Below, one piece after another: positions 3,075 to 15,919 of a stretch of DNA of 17,442 nt. The position numbers were made by a program, and so were the translations under genes. Position 1 is the stretch's first letter, and the number at the start of each line of letters is the position of its first letter. A model generated the notes under the pieces. It searched no databases and was not told the origin of the DNA. It saw nothing but the letters and a program-made list of their open reading frames with translations. Source of the stretch: Pseudomonadota bacterium (GTDB lineage: Bacteria > Bdellovibrionota_C > UBA2361 > OMIW01); assembly GCA_900299205.1 (NCBI GenBank), contig OMIW01000087.1, forward strand, positions 1 to 17,442. Reading direction: 5' to 3'.

Positions 3075-4613
3075 GTGAGGGACATTCCCGTGAGATTGAG
3101 AAGCCCTTTTATATTCGTTCGAATCGCCGATTATTGTCGCTGGTGTGTGCTGTTATTTCTTTTGGTTGCCACGCTGCGGTGCGATGCGAGCCCGTCCTCT
3201 GATCCAGAAATTCTTGCTCGCCGAGGCATCTCCGCTCCTGTTAGTTCTGACGGTGAGCAGCTGGTACCGGAGCTCACCCTTGAGAGCCCGATTGGTGGAT
3301 GGACCTCCTCTCAGATGTTGGATATTCGGGGTCGATGTAGCGATGAAACCGTCAATCCAATCGTCGTTAATATTAACGGTGCTCGGTATCTTGTTTCTCC
3401 CAATACTGACGGTGCTTTCGCCCGCTCATTTCCCGCATCACAGGGCAGGAATACCGTTGAGGTCATCTGTCAGAATACCAAAGGAGTCGCACGACAGATT
3501 CGCTCTCTGTATGTTCAAACTGCCCCTCTTCCCCTCAAGGTAGTCCTTACCAGCGATACGGATGGGGTCTACACAGACTTACATGTTTATGAGCCAAATG
3601 GGGCGCATGTCTATTGGGCCCAAACAAAATCTCCTAGTGGCGGATTGTTTTTTCTCAATACGCAGGGGGACAATTTTGATAAACCGGGATACGGTCCCTA
3701 TTTATACGCTCATCCTGCCCCACCTATCGGCGTGTATCAAATCGACGCGAACTATTGGCCTGGAGGAGCCGTTCAGCACACCCTGGGTAATCTTGAGATT
3801 ATCACTAATGAGGGGACTCCTCAGGAATCTCGAAGGCGAGTGCAACGGCCTCTCGCACGACCAGGTGAGACGGCGACTCTTGCCTTCGTGATCATGCGAG
3901 GAATCGCCCAGAGCCCTGTCATTTATGTGCCCGGACAGGACTCCGAGGCGACTATGCCACCCGAGATCGCCAAGTACCGGCAGGAACATCCTCCATCAAC
4001 AGGAGGGGAGTATGCATCCCTACCTCTCAATGACAAAAGTCACCTAAGGGAAGCTGTCGTCGGAGTAGCTCTCGCTCAAGCAAAAGCGTTTAGCCCCCTC
4101 TGGGAACCATCGCAGCGAGATTGCGCCGGCCTCGTTCGGTTCGCCTTCCGTGAGGCGCTCAAGCCAAGAACGCTTGAACAGCGGGTTAAGCTTGGTTTGC
4201 CATCCCAGCTCACGTTTCCGCCAGTGTCGATTATGGCTCGACTTCACTTCCCCGAATATCCACGATTATGGCGGCAGGGAAACGGCACCCACGGAGCCTT
4301 CGCAGACAGTGAGATCTTGATTGGGCATAATTTTCTCCCGATAGGTCGATCGGTTGAAGAGGCACAGAATGGCGATATCCTGGCTTATGCGAAGTCATTC
4401 ACGACGGATGATCCGTTACATCTCATGATAGTAGCGCGGTCTCCCCACGGGGGACTGATGACGGTGTATCATAATGGAGCTCGCGCCCCGCACGGGGCGG
4501 TACGGGTCGTGCGCATCGGTGAGCTTGATACGGCTGATGATGAAACCTGGAGACCGGTCGCGGCAAATCCTCATTTCTTAGGAGTCTATCGGTGGAAACC
4601 CCTCATGGGCTGA
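3075..4613 (+). CDS. Secreted protein. It has an N-terminal signal peptide, a central beta-rich domain (possibly DUF2135/YfaP-like), and a C-terminal papain-fold-like domain with NlpC/P60- or DUF1175 (YfaT)-like Cys/His signatures.
   Basis: 512-aa ORF with a GTG start at 3075, preceded by AAGAAGG at 3064-3070. N-terminus has a hydrophobic h-region CVLLFLLVATLRCDASP. C-terminal ~190 aa carry RDCAGLVRFAFREAL (Cys codon 4122-4124), as in the DCSGLV catalytic-Cys block of NlpC/P60. Later NGDILAYAKSF...PLHLMIVARSPHGGLMTVYHNG (His codon 4419-4421) fits the GDLvff...HvgIY.G.g..iHa pattern. The stop at 4611-4613 overlaps the next gene's start. Confidence 0.6.
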   Translation: MRDIPVRLRSPFIFVRIADYCRWCVLLFLLVATLRCDASPSSDPEILARRGISAPVSSDGEQLVPELTLESPIGGWTSSQMLDIRGRCSDETVNPIVVNINGARYLVSPNTDGAFARSFPASQGRNTVEVICQNTKGVARQIRSLYVQTAPLPLKVVLTSDTDGVYTDLHVYEPNGAHVYWAQTKSPSGGLFFLNTQGDNFDKPGYGPYLYAHPAPPIGVYQIDANYWPGGAVQHTLGNLEIITNEGTPQESRRRVQRPLARPGETATLAFVIMRGIAQSPVIYVPGQDSEATMPPEIAKYRQEHPPSTGGEYASLPLNDKSHLREAVVGVALAQAKAFSPLWEPSQRDCAGLVRFAFREALKPRTLEQRVKLGLPSQLTFPPVSIMARLHFPEYPRLWRQGNGTHGAFADSEILIGHNFLPIGRSVEEAQNGDILAYAKSFTTDDPLHLMIVARSPHGGLMTVYHNGARAPHGAVRVVRIGELDTADDETWRPVAANPHFLGVYRWKPLMG

Positions 4614-6304
4614 ATCGTGTTGTGGTAGATCGCCGAAAGTGGATATTTTCAGCGATATTGCTGGTCGCCACTGTGTTGGCCGGTTCCGCGATATATGGGG
4701 TTCCTCGACTAACCGATTTCGGTCCCTTAGTGAGTGCTCTTCCTTCATCGATAGTCTACCAACCCGTATCCATAGTGCTCGATGGTAATCCTTGGGACCT
4801 GCCTGGGGCGGAGACTAAAGGTGAGACCGATAAACCGCGAGCTTCTCCTTCCGTTTCCTCTGCGGGAGGGGCGACTGCAACACTCCCCGAGGTGCCGACA
4901 TCAGGCACAGTTGAAACTGAGACCTGGGAGCTGGAAAGTAAATCATCGATCATTTCGGCTGAAATCGTCTCACCACGGCGTGTGATCAGTGCCGGTGAGT
5001 ATCTGTTCTCGGATGCCGGCCCTTTTGGTCCTAAGCTGGCTCCCTTGGTGCGAGCTGAAGTAGGCACATTGATAACCTCATATGAGCGCTCGCTTCTCTC
5101 GTTTTCTCCTGATGGCAGATTGCTGTTGACCGCATTGAAGCTTGGAGCAGTCAGTGGTTCGCAATTAGTCGTTACCTTCAACGATGAAAACGCGTCTGTT
5201 GCCTTCTTGGTGCCTCGTCGTGGAGCCCGATTGTTTAGTGCATTTCTGCGAGCGGTTATCCAATTATCAGCGCGCAAAGCATTCTCGCTCAGGAATGGTT
5301 CGGTGATTATAGAGGCGCGCATCGGACGAAGCACCGTTGGAATAGCGGAGACCGAGCAGTGGTATGTGATAGGCTCAACACCTCGCTCGGTAGCGCAGGC
5401 GTTGATTGATTCTCCGCCTGGGACTCAAACTCATAAGGTCAAGGGGGATGTCGTTATTTCGATCTGTGGTGAGGGACGACTAGGTGGGGCATTGCTGCGT
5501 ACCTTGACCGGCAGTGAACGATATCAGGTAGCCGTTGGAGTGGACCTGCGGATTCCATCACAGCCGAAGCTCACAGCTCTCCTTCCACCTGCCCGCATTT
5601 TTTCCGCGCTCTCTCGCCCTGTTCCCATTTCCCTCTTGCGATCAATTCCACACGACGTTGGAGTTGGGATTATTTCCTCCATTCCGATGCCTCTGAGTGC
5701 GGTAAGTGCTCAGTGGGTTAGTTTGGCCCGTGGTGAATCGTCGCTCTTGGAGCTACCTGCGGCCGATGGCGTAGGGCTTGTCTGGGATATTAATGCGGAC
5801 GACTCGGTTGCGGCAATTACGGTTGCTGTTCCTTCTGAACGCCCGGATGGAGTCGAAGAGACGTTCTGGCGGAAGGACCTTCCGCGAGGAAGTTGTGGTG
5901 CAAATTCTGTTCAAATTTATGCGACGACTACCTCCCTGTACCAGAGCATTCGAGAGTCGTGCGATGGTGCGTCTTTATCACTCGCATCTTCCCTTGATTT
6001 AACGGCTGCAGAGAATTCATCGCAGCTGGTAATAACTGTTCAGCCGAGTCAGATTCTGGCTGGTATCATTGACCAGGGAACCCCCAAATTTCCGAAAAGT
6101 ATTGGGTGGCAAAGGTCATGGCAGAGGAGAGCAGGTGCAAATCCATCATCAATGGAGGAAGTAAAGGTTCTGGTCAAGGATCTGATACCGTTGATGGAGG
6201 GCGCCCTGAGTAGATTGCCAGCGATTGTATTTTCGGGCAACAAGGGGAGTGATGGCTTCGTATGGTTGACATCGCGCATGAAGAGTCCGAAGCGGAGTGG
6301 ATGA
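4592..6304 (+). CDS. Periplasmic protein anchored by one N-terminal TM helix. No recognisable catalytic motif. Candidate accessory protein of the macroglobulin operon (size and topology reminiscent of YfaA/MagB-type partners).
   Basis: 570-aa ORF with a GTG start at 4592, with AGGAG at 4580-4584 (7-nt spacer). Its start overlaps the upstream stop by 22 nt. The N-terminal segment RRKWIFSAILLVATVLAGSAIYGV is a signal-anchor-type helix. The remainder is Ser/Gly/Ala/Val-rich and beta-like. Its stop at 6302-6304 is 2 nt before the ATG at 6307 of the macroglobulin gene. Confidence 0.7.
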   Translation: METPHGLNRVVVDRRKWIFSAILLVATVLAGSAIYGVPRLTDFGPLVSALPSSIVYQPVSIVLDGNPWDLPGAETKGETDKPRASPSVSSAGGATATLPEVPTSGTVETETWELESKSSIISAEIVSPRRVISAGEYLFSDAGPFGPKLAPLVRAEVGTLITSYERSLLSFSPDGRLLLTALKLGAVSGSQLVVTFNDENASVAFLVPRRGARLFSAFLRAVIQLSARKAFSLRNGSVIIEARIGRSTVGIAETEQWYVIGSTPRSVAQALIDSPPGTQTHKVKGDVVISICGEGRLGGALLRTLTGSERYQVAVGVDLRIPSQPKLTALLPPARIFSALSRPVPISLLRSIPHDVGVGIISSIPMPLSAVSAQWVSLARGESSLLELPAADGVGLVWDINADDSVAAITVAVPSERPDGVEETFWRKDLPRGSCGANSVQIYATTTSLYQSIRESCDGASLSLASSLDLTAAENSSQLVITVQPSQILAGIIDQGTPKFPKSIGWQRSWQRRAGANPSSMEEVKVLVKDLIPLMEGALSRLPAIVFSGNKGSDGFVWLTSRMKSPKRSG

Positions 6305-9300
6305 GTATGACTGAAAGGGATGAGCCGATGAGCATGAGCGGCGATACTAATCGATCATCAATCGCTTTCGGTAGAATCGGTCAGCAGTGTGCCATGGGCA
6401 GGGTACCCAATGCCCTAAGGTTTTTTATCCTTTTTGGGATTCTTGCTCTGGCTACGGCCGTAAGGGCTGATAGCCCCTTTTACCTAACGGTTTCTCGCTC
6501 CATGAGCGAAAAAGAGCCGGTGCAGATCCGTCTCGATTCATCTGACAATCAATCTCCATTTCTTCTCCGTATTCTTAAGGCATCAGATGTTGACGCCTAT
6601 CTTGATGGCCAAGTGATGTTGAGTCGAGCATATGAGCCGCCGACAACGATTCCCAGTTTGTTGCGGGTTTTCGTTGATGGAGCGAATAAGGCAGTTTCTC
6701 CCCTGACGACTCTGAAGTCAGCGCTGGATAAAGATTTTCGGCGAGCACTTCACGATAGCGTTTCTCCACCTTTGCGCCGCTTCTCATCGGAACCGTTCGT
6801 GGGACCACCATCGATCAGGTATGACCCCCCTAAAGGTTTTTCTATTATTCGACAAACGTACCTTGATTTGTCGACTAGCGGCAAAAAAGCGGATGATGCT
6901 TGGTGGTGGTTTGGCGAAACCCCGTGGGCGATGCCAGAGCAGGCTGGTTATCGAACAAGAGTCATATACATAGATCCCCTGCCACCGGGGCTTTACACTG
7001 TTCAGGGAATTCAAGGAGATAATGAAGCTCAGGCGTTACTGCAAGTTAGTGCGTTATCGGTACAGGTAAAACAGTCAAGTAAGGATCTGCTCATTCGTAT
7101 AATGAACAGAGAAGGGCACCCAGTTTCGGGCGTGACGGCTCGAATTCGCGGGCGGTCTGGATCATGGGAATCGATATCAGGAGTCTCGAATCAGGACGGT
7201 GAGCTGACGGTGACCCGTTCAGAGCCCTTCGATGGACGGCTCGTTGTTCAGGTACATTCAGGATTGTATGGGGATGCTCTGGTAACAACTGATTTCCTCG
7301 CGTCGAGTCACGAGGTTCAGGATGCATTTATCTTTACAGATCGCCCAATTATCAAGCCCGGTGAAGAAGTATTCTTTGGGGGGATTGTCAGAAACTTTCG
7401 CGATGGTCGGCTGGAGGCAGGGACAACTGGAAGCGCGGGGTCGATGACCCTAAAAAACGGAGACTCGACCATTGGTCCTTTGCCAATAACGGTTTCGCCT
7501 GAGGGTAGCTTCAGTGGCATGGTTCCTCTGCCATCAGATGCGATACCGGGGCTGTATCGAGTTACCGCGACTCTCGATGAAAAGCGATATCAGGGGGAGG
7601 TGCGGATTCAGGAGTATGTGAAGCCTAGCTTTTATCTGACATTTGTTGAAAAACCGGCAACATTAATGCCGGGCCAGAATGTTCGATTGGTGTTGTCAGC
7701 GCAACGGTACCGCGGTGGACCTGCTCACCATGTCCGCTATGAGGTTTTTGTTTATAGGAAGCGATTTGAAACGCCTCAATTCGTTGCTGATGCTGGCGGA
7801 GGATTGGTGACGGGGAGCGACTATTACAACGATGTCCGAAGTGGTTCTGCTCTGACTCAGCCACAGCGAGTTTATAGCACCGTCGATAAGCGGATTCAGG
7901 ATGATTCAACCGGGGCAGTGTCATTGAATCCCTGGGCAAGCAGTCCCCTGATGGATGACTTGGGAAAAGCCACCATTGAATTTGTCATTCCTGAGGTACC
8001 TCAGGAGCAAGTGAACGAACAAGGGGGACAGGAGTGGATATATACAATCGTGGTGCGTGCTCAGGATGATGAAGGGGGTAATGCAACTGCATCTGAAAGT
8101 ATATATGTCACCAAAAGTTTGGCATACGCTGCGGCTGGCTTTGCAAAGACCTTCTATGATGAGGGAGATCTTGCGGTTCCATTATCCATCCAGACCTCCA
8201 ATGCTTCCGGCGATTCTGTGGGGCTCGCGAAAGGAGAGGTCCGATGTACCTTGGAGGGAATTGAGGGGAACGAGAATCCCCTACAAACGATACCGTTTGT
8301 GACTGACGACAAAGGTTCAGCGTTAGTATCGATTCCTCTTCACCGAGGTGAGCGAGGAGTGCTGCGAGCTTATCCGAAGGTTACTCAGGTAGAAGACCGG
8401 CCGAATCCATCGCCAATTGAGCCCGACCCAAGTCAGACGATTATCGTTGGTAAAAAAAATGAAAAGATAGTGAAAGAGCCGGTGCTCAATCTGATTCAGT
8501 CGCGTTCGGTATTGTCACCCGGTGAGCACGACACGCTCGTCGCACTCCTTCCTGAGGGTGCGCTTCTTGGTGAACGTCAACGTATGTGGGTATCGGTTGC
8601 AGGACGCAAAATATATGATCGTATGAGCATTCCCCTGAGCGGATCGACACTGAGTATTCCTATTAAAGCAAAGCCGGAGTATGGGACTGCTTTCTATGTC
8701 TCGGTGGCATTGCCGGTCGCGGAAGGACGCTTTGAGGAGCGCACGGTTAGTTATCGGATCGTTCCGAAAGATCAGCTTCTGAGGGTTGAGGTGGCACCTG
8801 AGATTGATGTGGTGGCTCCGTTGCAAGATGCCGCGATTGTCCTCAAGGTGACTGATTCCGAGGGAACGCCGGTGCCTCAGGTCGAAACCTTTACCTCCGT
8901 GGTTGATGAGGCGGTGTACGCCGTTCAGCCTGAGTTCCGACCAACGCTTCTTTCATTCTTTCTCCCCATCGATCGACTCAACGTGAGTTCATTCCTATCC
9001 GATGAACTTCAGGGATATGGGTATGCAGACCGCTTCTTTCGAGCGAACTATCGACTCCATGCATTGAAGGTTCAAAATCAGCCCAAGGATAGGTTGATGC
9101 GGGATACCGCTGGCTTCTTTCCTCATCGCATCACGGATGCAAACGGTGAGGTGCGGATTGTGGTTCCCATGCCATCAAATGTAACGAAGTGGCGGGTTTC
9201 CTCGTTGGCAATCGATCGGTCTGGGAGATTGGGCGAGGGGCGGGGCTACTTCTCCACCAAGAGCGATATCTCCGTAGAGGCTCGGGTCCCTTCGTTTCTT

Positions 9301-11316
9301 CGACAGGGAGATTCGGTGACTGGGAGCGTTGTGGTGGGAAGCCAGGTAGCATCCCAAGAGGTTTCAGGTGAGATAAATATAGCGGTGGAGCGCGGACTTG
9401 GAATTGGTTCGCCAGTGGTTCAGCGACCATTCTCTCTTACCGCCTCCGAGTCGGCGGTTGAACCGCTCAATCTAGTGAGTAGTTCAAATGTCGGAATGGG
9501 GGGAGTACGGGTAGAGATAAAGGGAGCAGCGCCTTCTCTGAAGATTGGTGGAGGACGAGAGTTTGATGTGACCCTTCGCTCTTCTGCAGAAGCGTTCAGT
9601 GAGGCAATTCCTCTCACCTCGGGATTCTGGAAGCTGGAGCGTCCGGAGAGTGTCAGCCGACTAGAGATTATTGGCACCCCTGGATTGGCCGCAGCGGTTA
9701 AGGAGGCCCAGAAATTCCTTCTCAGCTATCCCTATGGCTGCACCGAGCAGCTGTTAGCCTCGACCGTCCCCAATTTCCTAGCGCTTGCGGGGGAAAACTC
9801 ACCAGTAGCGAAGCAAAACCTCGCAACGGGATTGAGGAAACTATTAGCGCATCAGGGCCAGAGCGGAGGCTTTGGTATGTACGCAGGGGACAATCCCTCA
9901 GTTGACCTCACTGCCCTGGTGTATTCGACTCTCATTCCGTTTAAGGATGAAGCATCGCTTACGGGTACCGAAGTTGAGCGGTTGCTGGATGTAATCTTAG
10001 AACGGGGCAAGCAATATTTTCGAGGGATTAAAGAGGAAAACCCCGCAGAGGTATCGGTTGCGCGGGCGCGGGTGTTCGCCAAAATCGGCCCATCAGAGGT
10101 TCCGGGTTCAAATGGAACACTGGGAGAGGACACGTTGAGGAGGTTGTTTGAGGAGGTTGCCCGTAACGATAGTGCGCCGTCAATATCGGCGATAGCCACC
10201 GCATCAGAGCTTCTTCGTCAGTGGGGTGACTATCCTCCTGACGGGGTGTTCCCGCATGGAAATCGGGAAGCGTTCGTTTCACTGGTGAAGAAGCAGTTAC
10301 ACGTCGCCATATCTCAGATTAATTCCGATAGTTCTGGTAAAGGGATCGGGAAGGGTGATCTCCCGTTCTGGTCAGAGGGGAGTGCGCAGACGGCTTCAGT
10401 ATTGAGTGAGCTTTTCGCGTGGGATGAACTCAAGCCTGAGGAGGAGCGAACACTCGCTGAGTATCTCATGAAAGCGTACGATCCTGAGGATGGGTGGGGC
10501 TCCACTCTTGAGACCTCCTCGGTATTGCTCGGTCTGAGGGATTATCTCAGAGTTCGTGAAATTGGATCTAATGAGAGGGAGAAAGCTGATGGACGGGTAT
10601 GTCCGAGCAGTGTCTCGTTGGGTATCGGGTCCGAGACAGTTGCGTGTTTATGCCAAGAGTCGACTGTCCACTGTCTGATCGATAAAGAGAAGCTACGTGT
10701 GTCCCGAGAAGGCCACGTCTTGGTTAAATTGCCCGATTTGCCGAAATCATATCAACTAACTGCTCGTGTAGACCGAGAGGGTAAGCCGGGAGAAACTCCC
10801 CCAGCCGCAGGGGCTCTTCGCGTTGAGCGTACGTTGCTTCGAGTGATTGGCGGAGGCAAAACAGAAGCGGTAACCTCATCGACCAAGCTCCACCGTGGGG
10901 ACACGGTATTAAGTATTGTACGATTCTCCGATCTTCCCGCACCGCGACGACGCTGGCGGGTGAGAGCTGCGAGTAGTCTGTTCGTGGTGAAAGACACGAT
11001 ACCATCGATTGCCATCTCCGTGAATGACGAGCGCGAGGTCCTTGCTGATGCAGGTATTTCTGGTCCTGCGGAGTCAGAGGCATCGAATGATTATTGGGGC
11101 TCGATTCGCGAGACCCATCGGTTCCCGTGGCACATCGAGCGCGTCTTTCAGCTTCCCCGGAGGGAGTTTATTGGGAAGACAAGAACCGTCTACACCGGCT
11201 GGAAAGTTCTGTATTCCGGTAAAGCATCGCTCCCTGCGGCTCGCGTAACGGATATGTATAACGGTGAGCGATATGGGTTGGCCACGGGCGGGGTGCATGA
11301 AGTGGTTGCTGAATAG
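6262..11316 (+). CDS. Alpha-2-macroglobulin family protein (bacterial A2M/thioester-containing protein) with an intact thioester motif. The likely true start is ATG 6307 (GGAG 9 nt upstream) or ATG 6394, just before the signal peptide.
   Basis: 1684-aa ORF. Signal-peptide-like MGRVPNALRFFILFGILALATAVRA|DSP has no lipobox Cys. Thioester pentapeptide GCTEQ lies in LLSYPYGCTEQLLAS (codons 9736-9750, Cys residue ~1160 of the long ORF), at the position expected for the A2M thioester domain. The long beta-rich N-terminal two-thirds is consistent with macroglobulin (MG) domains. Overall length is typical of bacterial A2Ms (1500-2000 aa). The stop is at 11314-11316. Confidence 0.9.
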   Translation: MVDIAHEESEAEWMSMTERDEPMSMSGDTNRSSIAFGRIGQQCAMGRVPNALRFFILFGILALATAVRADSPFYLTVSRSMSEKEPVQIRLDSSDNQSPFLLRILKASDVDAYLDGQVMLSRAYEPPTTIPSLLRVFVDGANKAVSPLTTLKSALDKDFRRALHDSVSPPLRRFSSEPFVGPPSIRYDPPKGFSIIRQTYLDLSTSGKKADDAWWWFGETPWAMPEQAGYRTRVIYIDPLPPGLYTVQGIQGDNEAQALLQVSALSVQVKQSSKDLLIRIMNREGHPVSGVTARIRGRSGSWESISGVSNQDGELTVTRSEPFDGRLVVQVHSGLYGDALVTTDFLASSHEVQDAFIFTDRPIIKPGEEVFFGGIVRNFRDGRLEAGTTGSAGSMTLKNGDSTIGPLPITVSPEGSFSGMVPLPSDAIPGLYRVTATLDEKRYQGEVRIQEYVKPSFYLTFVEKPATLMPGQNVRLVLSAQRYRGGPAHHVRYEVFVYRKRFETPQFVADAGGGLVTGSDYYNDVRSGSALTQPQRVYSTVDKRIQDDSTGAVSLNPWASSPLMDDLGKATIEFVIPEVPQEQVNEQGGQEWIYTIVVRAQDDEGGNATASESIYVTKSLAYAAAGFAKTFYDEGDLAVPLSIQTSNASGDSVGLAKGEVRCTLEGIEGNENPLQTIPFVTDDKGSALVSIPLHRGERGVLRAYPKVTQVEDRPNPSPIEPDPSQTIIVGKKNEKIVKEPVLNLIQSRSVLSPGEHDTLVALLPEGALLGERQRMWVSVAGRKIYDRMSIPLSGSTLSIPIKAKPEYGTAFYVSVALPVAEGRFEERTVSYRIVPKDQLLRVEVAPEIDVVAPLQDAAIVLKVTDSEGTPVPQVETFTSVVDEAVYAVQPEFRPTLLSFFLPIDRLNVSSFLSDELQGYGYADRFFRANYRLHALKVQNQPKDRLMRDTAGFFPHRITDANGEVRIVVPMPSNVTKWRVSSLAIDRSGRLGEGRGYFSTKSDISVEARVPSFLRQGDSVTGSVVVGSQVASQEVSGEINIAVERGLGIGSPVVQRPFSLTASESAVEPLNLVSSSNVGMGGVRVEIKGAAPSLKIGGGREFDVTLRSSAEAFSEAIPLTSGFWKLERPESVSRLEIIGTPGLAAAVKEAQKFLLSYPYGCTEQLLASTVPNFLALAGENSPVAKQNLATGLRKLLAHQGQSGGFGMYAGDNPSVDLTALVYSTLIPFKDEASLTGTEVERLLDVILERGKQYFRGIKEENPAEVSVARARVFAKIGPSEVPGSNGTLGEDTLRRLFEEVARNDSAPSISAIATASELLRQWGDYPPDGVFPHGNREAFVSLVKKQLHVAISQINSDSSGKGIGKGDLPFWSEGSAQTASVLSELFAWDELKPEEERTLAEYLMKAYDPEDGWGSTLETSSVLLGLRDYLRVREIGSNEREKADGRVCPSSVSLGIGSETVACLCQESTVHCLIDKEKLRVSREGHVLVKLPDLPKSYQLTARVDREGKPGETPPAAGALRVERTLLRVIGGGKTEAVTSSTKLHRGDTVLSIVRFSDLPAPRRRWRVRAASSLFVVKDTIPSIAISVNDEREVLADAGISGPAESEASNDYWGSIRETHRFPWHIERVFQLPRREFIGKTRTVYTGWKVLYSGKASLPAARVTDMYNGERYGLATGGVHEVVAE

Positions 11317-13393
11317 AAATACGCTTCGAGAAGTAGCCTCGATATTTGTCATCGCACAAAGTCTGGCGAGTGGGGGTGGACTACAAAGACGGGCGGAATC
11401 GTACGCAGAGCGGTATACCAAAGTGGGGTATACCCTTCCCGAACGAATTGTCGTCACCGAGGCGGTAAACGGTGATGGATCGTTATCTGGACTACATGCA
11501 GGTGGCTGGTCACCGGGAGTCATCGGACTGCGAGCAAATCCAACGGGATTATTTGGTATCGATCAGTATCTTGCCCATGAATTAGCTCATGAGGCGGTAT
11601 TTCGGACCTGTGGAGGAATTCCCGAGTGGAAAAGTGAAGCGCTCGCGATGCTCTTGAGTGGTGAGCTCGCACAGGTCTGGGAGGTGGAGCAATCGGCTCT
11701 TAAGGATCGTGTGCATGATCGCAAGCTCCTGTGGGAGAGCGTCCGGGGTGTAAGGTCTTTCGAACCGGGTGCTGCTCGCGCACTACGTCAGATATTGCGA
11801 GCGTACGCACATCACAAACAACGACCGTGTGAGTTGCCGGAGGCAGCGGCCCAGGCTTTGCGTGGGCCAGTCCGAGATGAAACCCCTCGTTGGGTTGCAC
11901 TGTCTCTTTCGAGTGGTCGCTTGCTCGCCAAAAAGGGAGACATCTTCGATGAGGTCGCACCGGCCTCTCTGCTAAAGCTCCTCTATGTTGCGAGCGATAC
12001 TCGTGCTCTCTCCGTTGAGCAGGTTCAGGGGCTGCTCCGCAGTGATGAGGATCAGATTCGAGGGAGCAGTTCATTCGATCTAGGTCGCTACATGCTGATG
12101 TCAGCGCCTCTCCGAGATCACAGCAGTCTGCGAGAAGTTCCCCCAGCTCCGAGTGTTCTGATGGGTCAGGCAGATGCAGCCTCCTATCCCCTCCAGGGCT
12201 CATTGCAGGCGATTGCCCAAGCTGTTCGCAGTGCCATTCTTTTAAAGGGACGTTCATCTTGGAGCCCTTTGGTTAAGTTTGATGAGGATGAGAAGGCAAC
12301 AATCGGCATGGCCTCACAGAGCGTTCGACAGCTGATTCGAGAGCAGTCGGGCTGGGTAAAAACAGGCACAGCATCTTTGCACGATGGCACGCCCACAGAA
12401 GGAGTAATAGCGGTTGTGTGGCCGGCAACAGATCCGACCGTTCTACTGGTCGCTGCCCGAAACGGTGTGAAGGGAGCCCAGGTCTGGAATGGAGATGAGC
12501 CCACGCTCAATCGGGTCATGAAGCTTCTTGCGCCGTTTTCTCGAGATACGAAGAGTGAGGTTCTTTCGTTGCTTCCCCGAAACAGCTTTTCTATAAAAGC
12601 GCCATTTTCGGATACCTCCTGTGAACGGTTGATCCTCGATGATGGTGGCATTACCTCGACCTGTGGTGCTATTGAGATAGAAACCACCGTCAAGGGAGCC
12701 CTCCGTCGGCGATTCTTCCATGGAGTTCTCTCGTTTCGAGAGGATGCATTGGTTCTTCGGACGGATCCATACACCTACGGAGAGTATGTGGTTGAGGGCG
12801 AGGTAGCCCGGGAAGCTGGAGAACTGCGTGAGGCAGTTCAGATGGTCGGTGGTTGGAATAGTGCAAATGGCAACCACGGTCATCGATGGGGGACCGTGTG
12901 TGATACTTCGCATTGCATGGTTCAGAAGGGAAGCTCATCCCAATTGCTGCCACCAATCTCTCCTGAGCAGCTTGAACGCGTCGAACGCATATTTAGGATG
13001 CTTTCCGAATTTGCTGCGCGGCGAGGAGAGCGATGGTTCGAGTTTTCTTACAGCAAGCCAGCGGAATGGAGTCGAACGGTGCCAGTTATAGATGTTACCG
13101 CACGGATGGGGCTCGAGGGCAGTCTCTCGGTGTATCGTCAGCGAAACAAGGGAGGAGACGTGGCGATCGTGTTCAGCGGTGACGAGGTTACCCATGTAAC
13201 AACCTGCGATACTCTGATGGTAAAGCTCGATCTTCCCTCTTGCCCATCGCGAATCACGCAAGAGGAGGGGCTTGTTGCATTTCAGGGCGACATAGTCGGT
13301 CACGGTCGGGGGCTATCGATATGGGACTGGAATCGTCGTTGCATCGAGTCGCATTGCTCGGTTGAAGAAATTCTCCGGAGTAGCTATGGGTGA
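11264..13393 (+). CDS. Secreted multi-domain protein. It has an N-terminal zincin-like domain with a HExxH motif, a central PBP/beta-lactamase-like domain (SxxK ... KTG), and a Cys/His-rich C-terminal region. The probable start is ATG 11297, overlapping the A2M stop.
   Basis: 709-aa ORF. The weak signal-like N-terminus MKWLLNRNTLREVASIFVIAQSLASGGG begins at 11297. HELAH lies in QYLAHELAHEAVFRTCGG (11576-11590) and is followed by EALAML, a possible third ligand Glu. SLLK in APASLLKLLYVA (Ser 11966-11968, Lys 11975-11977) and, ~131 aa later, KTG in GWVKTGTASLHDGTPTEGVIAVVWPATDPTVLLVAARNG (12359-12367) match the serine-transpeptidase/beta-lactamase motif spacing and the context after KTG. The C-terminus carries repeated SHC/Cys-His blocks (GHRWGTVCDTSHCMVQ; RCIESHCSVEE). 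Confidence 0.65.
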   Translation: MSDMGWPRAGCMKWLLNRNTLREVASIFVIAQSLASGGGLQRRAESYAERYTKVGYTLPERIVVTEAVNGDGSLSGLHAGGWSPGVIGLRANPTGLFGIDQYLAHELAHEAVFRTCGGIPEWKSEALAMLLSGELAQVWEVEQSALKDRVHDRKLLWESVRGVRSFEPGAARALRQILRAYAHHKQRPCELPEAAAQALRGPVRDETPRWVALSLSSGRLLAKKGDIFDEVAPASLLKLLYVASDTRALSVEQVQGLLRSDEDQIRGSSSFDLGRYMLMSAPLRDHSSLREVPPAPSVLMGQADAASYPLQGSLQAIAQAVRSAILLKGRSSWSPLVKFDEDEKATIGMASQSVRQLIREQSGWVKTGTASLHDGTPTEGVIAVVWPATDPTVLLVAARNGVKGAQVWNGDEPTLNRVMKLLAPFSRDTKSEVLSLLPRNSFSIKAPFSDTSCERLILDDGGITSTCGAIEIETTVKGALRRRFFHGVLSFREDALVLRTDPYTYGEYVVEGEVAREAGELREAVQMVGGWNSANGNHGHRWGTVCDTSHCMVQKGSSSQLLPPISPEQLERVERIFRMLSEFAARRGERWFEFSYSKPAEWSRTVPVIDVTARMGLEGSLSVYRQRNKGGDVAIVFSGDEVTHVTTCDTLMVKLDLPSCPSRITQEEGLVAFQGDIVGHGRGLSIWDWNRRCIESHCSVEEILRSSYG

Positions 13394-13831
13394 CATGGTG
13401 GACAGGTAATCCGCAATGAATGACGCACTGTGGGGGACTCCCATGATTGCCCCCCGGTCACTCTTTGGCACTACGCCGAAAGGAAGCCTCTTTGGGGATG
13501 CTATCTCTTTGAAGCGGCGGCTCAGTAAAGTGGTAAAAACCGATCAGCTCAATAATAATAACGATTGAACCCAAAATGGGCAGAGCGGTTCACGGCGCCG
13601 TTTTTGAAGTTTTTCTTCGGTGATTGGTGGGTTAGCCCTGGACCACTAACCGATCCCTCAAGTTATGAATCTCTTATTCCGATACCGTCTTTTCGCGAGT
13701 CTCGAATCGGATCGGTTTTTTTAGCCGCAAACTGGATCGTATGGCTCCCTAAGCTCACCCTTCTTAATCGATAGTTGAAGAGAAAAAGGTCATCGGATTA
13801 AACTGGCCCCGCAAGGCATAGTGGCTTTTGA

Positions 13832-15919
13832 ATGCGGTCGAGAGAGGGAATTTTAGCTAACATTGAGGTTCTTATGGAAACAGTAACAAGCGATTTTGTT
13901 ATTTGGCGTTTCTTTTATCTGGTTTTGATCGGATTGGTAGGGTTTATCGCGTATAGAGGGCGTTTTATTCGTTACATTCCCAATAATCGGGTAGGTGTAG
14001 TAGAAAAGTTTTTTAGCACCCACGGATCGGTTGACGAGGGAATCATTGCTCTCAATGGAGAGGCTGGATATCAGCCGTCGGTGTTAAGAGGTGGATGGCA
14101 TCTTATGAAGCCGTTCATATACCGGATTCATAAGGTACCTTTAGTAACCATTCCGCAAGGCAAGCTTGGGTACGTTTTTGCGCGGGACGGCAAGGCACTA
14201 CTTCCCGAGCAGACCCTTGCGTCTAATGTTGAGGCATCTGACTTTGAAGATGTCGTTGATTTTCTCAGCAAGGGTGGGCAAAAGGGGCCTCAGCGGAAAA
14301 TTCTTCGGGAAGGAACTTACGCAATCAACCTCGCCCAGTTTGTCGTCATTACCCACGATACGCTCTACTATCACGATCTCGATGCGGGTGATGGCGCGCT
14401 GTTTCAGCAGATGGCTGAAGTCATCGCGGACCGCGGCGGTTTTGAGCCGGTCGTAATCAAGGACCGTGATGATAGTATCGGTGTGATAACCGTTCACGAT
14501 GGGCCATCGCTTAGTGAGGGCGAAATAATCGCCCCCATTGTCGGCAACGATGCCGGGGATAGGGATACCTTTCACAATAACTTTCAGGATCCGGAGGCGT
14601 TTCTCCGAGCTAAAGGAAGGAGGGGGCGACAATATCAGGTGCTCGTTGAAGGTACCTACTACATTAATCGATTATTTGCGACAGTTGAAGTCGTTCCGAA
14701 GACGATCGTAGAGGTGGGTCAAGTTGGTGTAGTGGTTTCGTACGTCGGAGCTCTCGGTGCGGATTTGTCGGGACTAGACTATAAGCACGGCGAATTGGTT
14801 CGGCAGGGTTCTCGTGGCGTATGGGAAACGCCGCTACTTCCTGGTAAATACGCTTTCAATACGTACGCTGGTAAAGTTGTAATGGTACCAACGACGAATT
14901 TTATTCTTAAATGGAATCGCTCGGAGACCGGTTCCCATAGGTTTGACGAAAATCTTGCAGAAGTTTCTCTTATCACTAAAGACGCTTATGAGCCGTCACT
15001 GCCATTAAGCGTTGTTGTGCATATTGATTATAAGAAGGCACCTCTGGTAATTCAGAGATTTGGAGACATTAAGCGGCTTGTCGAACAGACACTCGATCCA
15101 ATGGTTTCGGCCTATTTCAAAAACGTAGGTCAGACACGGACGTTGATTCAACTTCTCCAGGATAGGAGCGAAATTCAGCAGACATCATCGATGGAGATGA
15201 AAGCAAAGTTCGCCCACTACAATCTTGAGCTCGAAGAAGTATTAATTGGGACTCCGACATCAGGAGCGACCTCAGGGCAGATAGAGCAGATTCTGAATCA
15301 GCTGCGGGCCCGACAGCTTGCAGAGGAACAGGTGGAAACATATTCCCGTCAGCAGAAAGCATCGGTCAAAGAAAGGGAATTGAGGGAGACCGAGGCAAAG
15401 GCAAGGCAGCAGCAGGCGCTCACCGAATCTGAGATCAGTATCGAGATTCAATCAAATGAGGGAAAGGCCGAGTACCACCGGGCTTTGCAGCAGGCGGCTC
15501 AAATTCGTGCGCTTGCGGAGGCTGAAGCTGAGCGTGCAGCTCGAGTAGGAATTGGGCAGGCCATGGCTATCGAAGAGCAGGTGGCGGCCTATGGGGGTGC
15601 TCAATACCAGGTTCTGCAACAGGTGATAAACCGCTTTTCGGAAGCTATCGAAAAGTCCCGTGTAGATGTGGTTCCTAAGATAGTAATCGGCGGGGCTCAG
15701 GCCGGTAATAGTGAAAACTCGGGGCGCGGATTCTCTGGCGGTGGCGGTGCTAATGTTATCGAGGGGCTGATTGCTCTTTTGCTGTCCGAGAAGGTCGGTC
15801 TCGATATCCTGAACGAGTCTCGACCGCCACGAAATCCTGCCACCGAGGCAATGCGAAAGGCGATATTGACAAATATTGAAGCGGCAAATGAGACCAGTGA
15901 TCTCGAAGTGGGTAAATGA
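13832..15919 (+). CDS. SPFH/band-7 (flotillin-family) membrane protein with a long C-terminal Ala/Glu/Gln-rich coiled coil. The probable start is ATG 13874.
   Basis: 695-aa ORF. The N-terminal TM helix FVIWRFFYLVLIGLVGFIAYRG is followed by a beta-rich SPFH-like region. The C-terminal ~200 aa are flotillin-like EA/Q-rich coil (ARQLAEEQVETYSRQQKASVKERELRETEAKARQQQA...ALAEAEAERAARVG). A GAGG at 13865-13868 precedes the ATG at 13874. Confidence 0.7.
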   Translation: MRSREGILANIEVLMETVTSDFVIWRFFYLVLIGLVGFIAYRGRFIRYIPNNRVGVVEKFFSTHGSVDEGIIALNGEAGYQPSVLRGGWHLMKPFIYRIHKVPLVTIPQGKLGYVFARDGKALLPEQTLASNVEASDFEDVVDFLSKGGQKGPQRKILREGTYAINLAQFVVITHDTLYYHDLDAGDGALFQQMAEVIADRGGFEPVVIKDRDDSIGVITVHDGPSLSEGEIIAPIVGNDAGDRDTFHNNFQDPEAFLRAKGRRGRQYQVLVEGTYYINRLFATVEVVPKTIVEVGQVGVVVSYVGALGADLSGLDYKHGELVRQGSRGVWETPLLPGKYAFNTYAGKVVMVPTTNFILKWNRSETGSHRFDENLAEVSLITKDAYEPSLPLSVVVHIDYKKAPLVIQRFGDIKRLVEQTLDPMVSAYFKNVGQTRTLIQLLQDRSEIQQTSSMEMKAKFAHYNLELEEVLIGTPTSGATSGQIEQILNQLRARQLAEEQVETYSRQQKASVKERELRETEAKARQQQALTESEISIEIQSNEGKAEYHRALQQAAQIRALAEAEAERAARVGIGQAMAIEEQVAAYGGAQYQVLQQVINRFSEAIEKSRVDVVPKIVIGGAQAGNSENSGRGFSGGGGANVIEGLIALLLSEKVGLDILNESRPPRNPATEAMRKAILTNIEAANETSDLEVGK

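Follow-up and report, generated by a model that had tools for sequence, protein, structure and literature searches.

The stretch of DNA analysed here (the window) comprises 17,442 nucleotides (nt) of contig OMIW01000087.1, from a genome assigned to Bdellovibrionota_C (GenBank assembly GCA_900299205.1). It carries four genes in one direction, all on the forward (+) strand, as are the domains and motifs of their products located below. These genes encode a fusion of DUF2135 and DUF1175 domains, a 570-amino-acid (aa) protein, an alpha-2-macroglobulin (A2M) and the target of this study, a protein that joins zinc-protease-like, penicillin-binding-protein (PBP)-like and SpoIID-type glycan-cutting modules.

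Reading frame, motifs and structural model of the target

The coding sequence of the three-domain protein spans 11297..13393 (698 aa) according to the list of open reading frames (ORFs) and the translation. The longest ORF begins at a GTG at 11264, but the ATG at 11297 is the likelier start, since an identical database protein of 698 aa (P0001) begins there with MKWLL. Residue numbers in the target are counted from this ATG, which overlaps the stop of the macroglobulin gene (11316) by 20 nt. A preliminary description of the locus, made from the DNA alone, had picked out HELAH (11576-11590), SLLK (11966-11977) and KTG (12359-12367), and all three are exact in the + frame translation of ORF 11264-13393, as is the strand-rich stretch 3' of KTG. 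When the protein was shuffled 20,000 times, HExxH turned up in 2.2% of the shuffles, KTG in 8.6% and SxxK in 89%; all three motifs in the correct order and spacing turned up in 0.015%. By composition alone, these sequence motifs would be weak evidence of function, and it is their conservation that is decisive.

Searches of Pfam, NCBIfam and the PDB with the query sequence gave no match. The structure was predicted with AlphaFold (AF2), which gave a mean predicted local distance difference test score (pLDDT) of 40 from a 2-sequence alignment, and a pLDDT of 89 with a predicted template modelling score (pTM) of 0.80 from a 40-sequence alignment. The latter model was used throughout, and active-site geometry was judged from secondary-structure positions in it. 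A Foldseek search of the PDB with the whole model recovered two classes of match, SpoIID and PBP transpeptidases/class A beta-lactamases.

Relatives and conservation

A word-indexed homolog search found one relative, with 29% to 32% identity, which is also encoded directly 3' of a macroglobulin gene. An exhaustive profile search expanded the family to 216 cluster representatives, including ~50 close full-length relatives and ~90 more distant ones of 700 to 800 aa. Public records name these proteins only "hypothetical" or "uncharacterized". The taxa represented among 75 loci are Syntrophobacteraceae, Methylococcaceae, Bdellovibrionota, and Myxococcota. HExxH near residue 100 and K(T/S)G near residue 370 are common to all full-length members, nearly all of which also carry CD(T/S)THC(M/Q) near residues 540 to 600.

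In an alignment of 96 full-length sequences, just 17 positions are 100% conserved, and 12 of these are predicted catalytic or metal residues (H94, E95, H98, E114, S224, K227, S249, K355, G357, E502, C535, and C540). H669 is likewise invariant in the 96 sequences. The preliminary description had called for a check of the His, Glu, Ser and Lys residues of its motifs in orthologs, and H94, E95, H98, S224, K227 and K355 are indeed 100% conserved in the 96 relatives. The same catalytic-type residues are invariant in the close family of 40 sequences. Identity to the query is ~14% to 39% in the alignment of N-terminal domains and 22% to 37% in the close family, and since the catalytic and metal residues are invariant despite this low identity, the motifs are functional rather than chance occurrences. 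The chance alternative, in which the motifs would have arisen in an unrelated protein, can draw on the frequency of SxxK in shuffles and on the lack of a Pfam or NCBIfam match to the query. We reject it as practically negligible, given the rarity of the ordered trio (0.015% of shuffles), its invariance in 96 relatives, and the fold matches of two of the domains.

The penicillin-binding-protein-like domain

The second domain (residues ~195-415, 11879..12541) is predicted to have the penicillin-binding (serine DD-peptidase) fold, with SxxK, a second Ser and KTG in canonical positions. Foldseek matches it to PBP transpeptidase domains and class A beta-lactamases in the PDB with E values of ~1e-5. 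In the AF2 model, two strands precede the SxxK motif (SLLK, 11966..11977; 100% conserved), in which S224 is the candidate nucleophile, followed by K227, and which stands at the N-terminus of helix 223-232. The KTGT sequence (12359..12370) that includes the KTG motif lies on beta-strand 353-360, with K355 and G357 100% conserved and T or S between them across the family; after this strand come two that are antiparallel, and then a C-terminal helix. The family profile aligned "syvlisllSGrvl...plGSLlK" with the strand and catalytic PASLTK motif of Escherichia coli DacC (E 0.46), and one relative matches Pfam Transpeptidase (E 4.5e-6); the query gave no match to the Transpeptidase or beta-lactamase families of Pfam. 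The PBP-like assignment made in the preliminary description is thus borne out by a fold match and by invariant SxxK and KTG motifs in canonical structural positions.

An SxN motif, looked for between SxxK and KTG, is absent. In its place stands SDE (12041..12049; family consensus SDT), whose invariant S249 occupies the SxN position on the expected loop, between helices 240-248 and 251-255 of the model, and whose Ser is 100% conserved whereas the Asn is not. The target resembles serine beta-lactamases and, among PBPs, class B transpeptidase domains and low-molecular-weight DD-peptidases in carrying SxxK at a helix N-terminus and KTG(T) on a beta-3-like strand. It differs from them in a shortened helical subdomain, with 131 residues between SxxK and KTG and the second Ser 25 residues after the first, in the replacement of the SxN Asn, and in having neither a glycosyltransferase nor a pedestal domain. 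The family is also a candidate new family of penicillin-binding proteins, currently without annotation.

The SpoIID-like domain

The third domain (residues ~418-698, 12548..13390) is a predicted SpoIID/LytB-like lytic transglycosylase with a catalytic Glu, an H/C/H/C zinc site and a GHGxG signature, as indicated by Foldseek, by the family profile and by Pfam matches in relatives. Foldseek aligned the model with SpoIID of Bacillus anthracis and Clostridioides difficile (4rwr and 5i1t) at E values of 3e-6 to 2.5e-5 (3.2e-6 for 4rwr). The family profile matches the same proteins in both lobes (5i1t of C. difficile, E 2.7e-4; 4rwr of B. anthracis, E 0.013), pairing "TDpesYadgVleaE" with "mDmENYLcGVLAGE", "LCDTTHCmV" with "vvCtDYKHCqe", and "GvGeGHGrGL...eiL..aY" with "GYGHGVGMSQ...diLshYY". 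Pfam SpoIID (PF08486) is matched by 13 of 40 relatives (best E 3.3e-5); the query alone has no Pfam match.

The 100% conserved E502 (12800..12802) is the equivalent of the catalytic Glu of SpoIID, which is E88 in Bacillus subtilis; in the C. difficile protein its counterpart in the alignment is the Glu of GVLAGEM. The segment H529-x5-C535-DTS-H539-C540 (12881..12916) forms a predicted SpoIID-type zinc site, with C535 and C540 conserved at 100% and H529 and H539 at 94%. GHGRG (13298..13312) corresponds to the C-terminal SpoIID signature (GHGxG) and aligns with GYGHGVGMSQ; H669 and G672 are invariant, and conservation across G668-H669-G670 is 94% to 100% in the 96 sequences. SpoIID of C. difficile has E101 as its catalytic residue and a single zinc ion bound by H134, C140, H145 and C146 (PMC6221140). 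This region had earlier been described as a Cys/His-rich tail with repeated SHC/HGH blocks. Its first block (HGH...SHC) does coincide with the conserved, predicted zinc site, but the region is a SpoIID-like domain of ~280 residues rather than a tail, and the last "SHC" (in RRCIESHC) is not shared even by the closest homolog.

The likeness to SpoIID/LytB (PF08486; 4RWR and 5I1T) extends over fold, profile, catalytic Glu, H/C/H/C zinc site and GHGxG. SpoIID is membrane-anchored, has one domain and relies on SpoIIP as a second protein, whereas the domain is fused here to two peptidase-like domains. It also has extra conserved cysteines (C442, C637, and C649) and comes from Gram-negative, non-sporulating lineages.

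The N-terminal zincin-like domain

The N-terminal domain (residues ~28-190, 11378..11866) is probably a zincin, judging from the elements of the AF2 model, weak matches to zincin families and its conserved residues. In the model it consists of a helix, three short strands, a long helix (88-105) that carries H94-E95-x-x-H98, and a helix (110-121) that carries E114; this is the order of helices and strands found in gluzincins (clan MA(E)). The HELAH motif that provides H94, E95 and H98 (11576..11590) was read directly from the sequence and is 100% conserved in the 96 relatives. E114 (11636..11638) in the next helix, the candidate third zinc ligand in the arrangement HExxH-x15-E, is also 100% conserved.

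When the N-domain profile was compared with the PDB, 20 of 21 matches were M1 aminopeptidases and other zinc metallopeptidases. The M1 alignment places HExxH and E114 on the HExxH-x18-E zinc site (the Glu of NEGFA), at E values of 0.23 to 1.7 that are non-significant alone. The match to Peptidase_MA_2 of Pfam is weak (E 0.08 to 0.12). Scanned singly, 32 N-domains gave 14 weak matches to HExxH families (eCIS_core, SprT-like, M78, BSP, DUF6782, MA_2, and Mx) versus 11 scattered singletons. Of the zincin claim in the preliminary description, the part that holds is an invariant HExxH-x15-E on two consecutive helices with weak matches to zincin families; fold searches, run with the whole model, gave no zincin match.

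Export

The target is probably exported across the inner membrane, as suggested by an N-terminal basic and hydrophobic segment (11297..11374) that has the features of a Sec signal peptide or signal anchor. The hydrophobic maximum (12-residue window) lies at residues 13-24. Members of the close family have a basic N-terminus followed by ~12 to 15 hydrophobic residues, without an obvious cleavage site, and distant relatives have textbook Sec signal peptides, for example ...ASSVRA/GS. Cysteines outside the zinc site (C105, C178, C442, C637, and C649) are conserved at 94% to 99% in the 96 sequences, and these conserved cysteines fit an exported protein in an oxidising compartment.

Relationship to YfaQ and MagE

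The target is, by profile comparison and operon position, a distant and unannotated relative of YfaQ of E. coli (b2226) and MagE of Pseudomonas aeruginosa (PA4488; DUF2300, COG5445), which are encoded by the fifth gene known from Yfa/Mag macroglobulin operons. The hhalign comparison of the family with YfaQ gave a probability of 90% and an E value of 1.5e-6 over ~280 columns (query 194-515 versus YfaQ 31-349), pairing P.GSLLK with PLGSLWK, as well as the second Ser and the N-lobe of the SpoIID domain. YfaQ itself matches Pfam DUF2300 (PF10062; E 2.8e-91) and SpoIID (E 7e-6). Searches for DUF2300 in the query, its fragments and its nearest homolog gave no match even at E values up to 10. YfaQ has been described as a transpeptidase-like N-domain and a SpoIID-like C-domain behind a Sec signal (10.1101/2025.02.11.637708), so a PBP-like and SpoIID-like core beside a macroglobulin has been known since 2025.

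The target shares with YfaQ/MagE this PBP-like and SpoIID-like core, an N-terminal export signal, which in the target is a probable one, and the slot directly 3' of the macroglobulin gene, in each case within an operon that includes DUF2135 and DUF1175/MagC genes. It differs in an extra N-terminal HExxH domain of ~160 residues, absent at that position in YfaQ, in having KTG where YfaQ has KTW, and in carrying both an intact CDT(T/S)HC zinc site, which reads DDSSASQ in YfaQ, and GHGxG, which is absent there. The phyla in which the two families occur also differ, and the partner macroglobulin of the target keeps its thioester, whereas MagD and YfaS are without one. The architecture is accordingly not undescribed as a whole, as had been supposed, because its core is homologous to YfaQ/MagE. 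What is new is the added N-terminal zincin-like domain, the KTG, zinc-site and GHGxG motifs, and the pairing with thioester macroglobulins.

The YfaQ/MagE family has an HExxH motif of its own, an invariant C-terminal HEYLH with E536 and E540 (E. coli yfaQ; L002, 149-1798; residues 520-540), and in this HEYLH...E the residues are spaced as in the target's N-terminal motif (HExxH-x15-E). It may be a zincin-like site, a permuted module or a derivative of the GHGxG region of SpoIID. The idea that it is a circularly permuted copy of the zincin motif of the target was examined by hhalign, which puts the two HExxH motifs in register but with an E value of 0.09 and a probability of 0.6%. The full-length alignment gave no reliable placement of the HEYLH region, and the YfaQ profile matches SpoIID in the N-lobe only.

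The operon and its macroglobulin

The first operon gene (3075..4613) encodes the fusion of a DUF2135 domain (YfaP/MagA/MagF-like; Pfam E 1e-8) and a DUF1175 domain (MagC/YfaT-like; E 8.6e-49). This 512-aa ORF also has an N-terminal Glucodextran_B-like domain, and the Myxococcota loci have two separate adjacent ORFs instead of the fusion. The second gene (4592..6304) encodes the 570-aa protein, which is membrane-anchored by an N-terminal hydrophobic helix. It is syntenic in ~25 loci, has no Pfam match and agrees with MagB/YfaA in size, in topology and in its place in the operon, making it a positional analogue of these proteins. As a homolog of DUF2138/YfaA/MagB it was rejected, since 10 relatives gave no Pfam match and BLASTP and hhalign found no similarity. 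The third gene (6262..11316), directly upstream of the target, encodes a macroglobulin of 1684 aa with Pfam MG2, A2M, TED and bait-region domains.

This gene order (DUF2135+DUF1175, membrane protein, A2M, target) recurs among the 75 loci. The macroglobulin gene ends at most 600 nt from the start of the homolog in 45 of 67 evaluable loci, in agreement with the linkage noted in the preliminary description. An obligatory linkage was rejected, as the other 22 loci are without adjacency and the Methylomonas copies stand among unrelated housekeeping genes. About a third of the homologs thus lie away from a macroglobulin gene, so the protein need not depend on the macroglobulin for its function. Several Methylomonas genomes (e.g., L012, Methylomonas sp. 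TEB, 9989-12100) have no macroglobulin gene within 10 kb of the homolog, and a YkuD L,D-transpeptidase gene lies ~3 kb downstream of it in Methylomonas loci. At one further locus (L022) the macroglobulin cluster is nearby and divergently oriented.

The macroglobulin of the window contains the thioester motif CTEQ (9739-9750) at residue 1160, inside the TED region. CxEQ is present at the equivalent place in all 39 long macroglobulin ORFs of the related loci (L003 to L078), while E. coli yfaS has no CxEQ and MagD is without the thioester cysteine (PMC3735191). The corresponding operons are yfaA-yfaT-yfaS-yfaQ-yfaP in E. coli and magABCDEF in P. aeruginosa (PMC3735191, PMC5764988). Published macroglobulin systems have been divided into type I, with thioester and PbpC, and type II, the Mag operon without thioester (PMC5764988), and a Mag/Yfa-type operon with a thioester macroglobulin falls outside this division. 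The pairing had at first been likened to that of A2M and Pbp1C, but the operon is of the Yfa/Mag rather than the A2M-PbpC type. It resembles the type I pair of A2M (ECAM/YfhM) and PBP1c in placing a thioester macroglobulin beside a PBP-fold cell-wall enzyme (PMC5764988), and by analogy this suggests a logic of trapping proteases and repairing the wall. It differs in that the target, having no glycosyltransferase domain, is not a class A PBP, and in that the operon also has the DUF2135, MagC-like and membrane-anchor genes typical of type II Mag/Yfa systems.

Proposed function and alternatives

We propose, with a probability of roughly 0.55, that the target is an exported enzyme whose three domains process peptidoglycan, and that as the partner of YfaQ/MagE type in a Yfa/Mag-type macroglobulin envelope operon it remodels or repairs the wall beside the trap. 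The protein would cross the inner membrane and act on peptidoglycan in the periplasm, where a DD-peptidase or transpeptidase forming an acyl-enzyme at Ser224 and the zinc peptidase would act on peptide stems or cross-links, and the SpoIID module would then cut the glycan strands. SpoIID cuts only glycan strands that have been stripped of peptides beforehand by SpoIIP (PMC6221140), so the fusion would be a self-contained SpoIIP-then-SpoIID sequence. The wall would be remodelled or repaired where the macroglobulin complex neutralises incoming hydrolases, in parallel with the logic proposed for A2M-PBP1c. The zincin domain may act on a peptide of the peptidoglycan or on a protein, for instance the macroglobulin. 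Remodelling or repair of the wall is the best supported reading because the mag operon protects P. aeruginosa against peptidoglycan-targeting type VI secretion system (T6SS) effectors (PMC12663445), MagC is described in a passage of PMC10318531, by citation, as binding peptidoglycan, and cells deleted for yfaQ are wider, with a phenotype profile that connects them to mepK, mepS, nlpI and other envelope genes (10.1101/2025.02.11.637708).

Several observations weigh against this proposal. The Asn of the second PBP motif is replaced (SD[T/E]), so that catalysis could be altered or lost. Every sequence match to zincins is individually non-significant, those in Pfam being all weaker than E 0.01, and the zincin fold was not recovered in whole-model fold searches, which gave PBP and SpoIID matches with PBP dominating. 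In P. aeruginosa, MagE was reported from the cytoplasmic fraction although it has a signal peptide (PMC3735191), and 22 of the 67 loci, for example those of Methylomonas, are not adjacent to a macroglobulin gene. For both the target family and YfaQ/MagE, enzymatic activity is a prediction.

The main rival explanation is a BlaR1-like sensor-protease, in which the PBP-like and SpoIID-like modules would bind wall fragments, damaged peptidoglycan or beta-lactams and thereby switch on the zincin, which would cleave a protein, most plausibly the adjacent macroglobulin (at the bait region or in maturation) or another operon partner. HExxH zincins are typically proteases that act on proteins, which favours this explanation, as does the co-occurrence of zincin domain and thioester: all 39 neighbouring macroglobulins keep the thioester, thioester macroglobulins act via bait-region cleavage, and the YfaQ-type partner of a yfaS product without CxEQ is itself without the N-terminal zincin domain. 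This correlation rests on two operon types only. MagD is moreover processed from 165 to 100 kDa, and deletion of magE alters the forms and amount of MagD (PMC5764988). However, the invariance of the SpoIID catalytic Glu and of the PBP catalytic residues suggests enzymes rather than mere sensors, and homologs exist without a neighbouring macroglobulin gene. Membership in BlaR1/MecR1 itself, in which an M56 zincin domain precedes an extracellular sensor of PBP fold, was rejected, as the target has a single N-terminal hydrophobic segment and neither the multi-pass M56 membrane domain nor a Pfam Peptidase_M56 match. In the target the zincin-like and PBP-like domains are both predicted on the periplasmic side and a SpoIID domain is added, and no BlaI-type repressor was found associated with it within the window. 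We consider a sensor-protease fairly unlikely. Rather improbable, in our estimate, is that the zincin serves as a dedicated protease for the neighbouring thioester macroglobulin, cutting it at the bait or in maturation and gated by the response of the PBP-like and SpoIID-like modules to damaged peptidoglycan. If this were true, the operon would be a self-arming envelope immune device in which one protein senses damage, triggers the trap and repairs the wall. It would also explain the effect of the magE deletion on MagD processing and give the Mag/Yfa operons a mechanism.

The target might also be a non-catalytic, peptidoglycan-binding scaffold or chaperone that tethers or stabilises the macroglobulin complex at the wall. 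MagE has been proposed as a chaperone of MagD (PMC5764988), and the NlpC/P60-like MagC/DUF1175 is counted among inactive proteins that bind peptidoglycan (PMC10318531). The absence of the SxN Asn from the target and the degenerate motifs of YfaQ (KTW for KTG, and no Cys/His zinc site) point in the same direction. However, the catalytic residues of all three modules are 100% conserved at ~14% to 39% identity and make up 12 of the 17 invariant positions, which is hard to explain by binding alone, and we regard a scaffold as quite improbable. A last alternative, very improbable in our view, is a secreted, offensive wall-degrading enzyme of predatory or competitive lineages, with the macroglobulin operon as a mere neighbour or as self-protection. 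Non-predatory lineages, Syntrophobacteraceae and methanotrophs, carry the family equally. The conserved hydrophobic segment of the close family shows no obvious cleavage site and rather resembles an anchor in the inner membrane, and the tight operon linkage, with the start codon overlapping the macroglobulin stop, points to a common role in housekeeping or defence.

Mag/Yfa macroglobulin operons are widespread, and both virulence and resistance to T6SS effectors that target peptidoglycan have been tied to them; MagE/YfaQ is their least understood component. In the operons described here, the same slot is filled by three predicted enzyme modules that have canonical catalytic residues, except for the SxN Asn, beside a thioester macroglobulin. 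The coupling of protease or hydrolase trapping to cell-wall remodelling in macroglobulin operons thereby becomes directly testable, and the organisms with a homolog include tractable ones, among them Myxococcus xanthus and Methylomonas.

Other genes in the window

A Hanks-type Ser/Thr kinase gene (1705-2841) lies upstream of the operon and a gene for a 695-aa SPFH/Band 7 protein (13832-15919) downstream; both are also present on a near-identical metagenomic contig (L079). A terminator-like hairpin (13582-13604) follows a 50-aa ORF. The hairpin count is not above that of shuffles. The 50-aa ORF itself (13416-13604 region) stands directly 3' of the target and is called as a gene on both L079 and L080.

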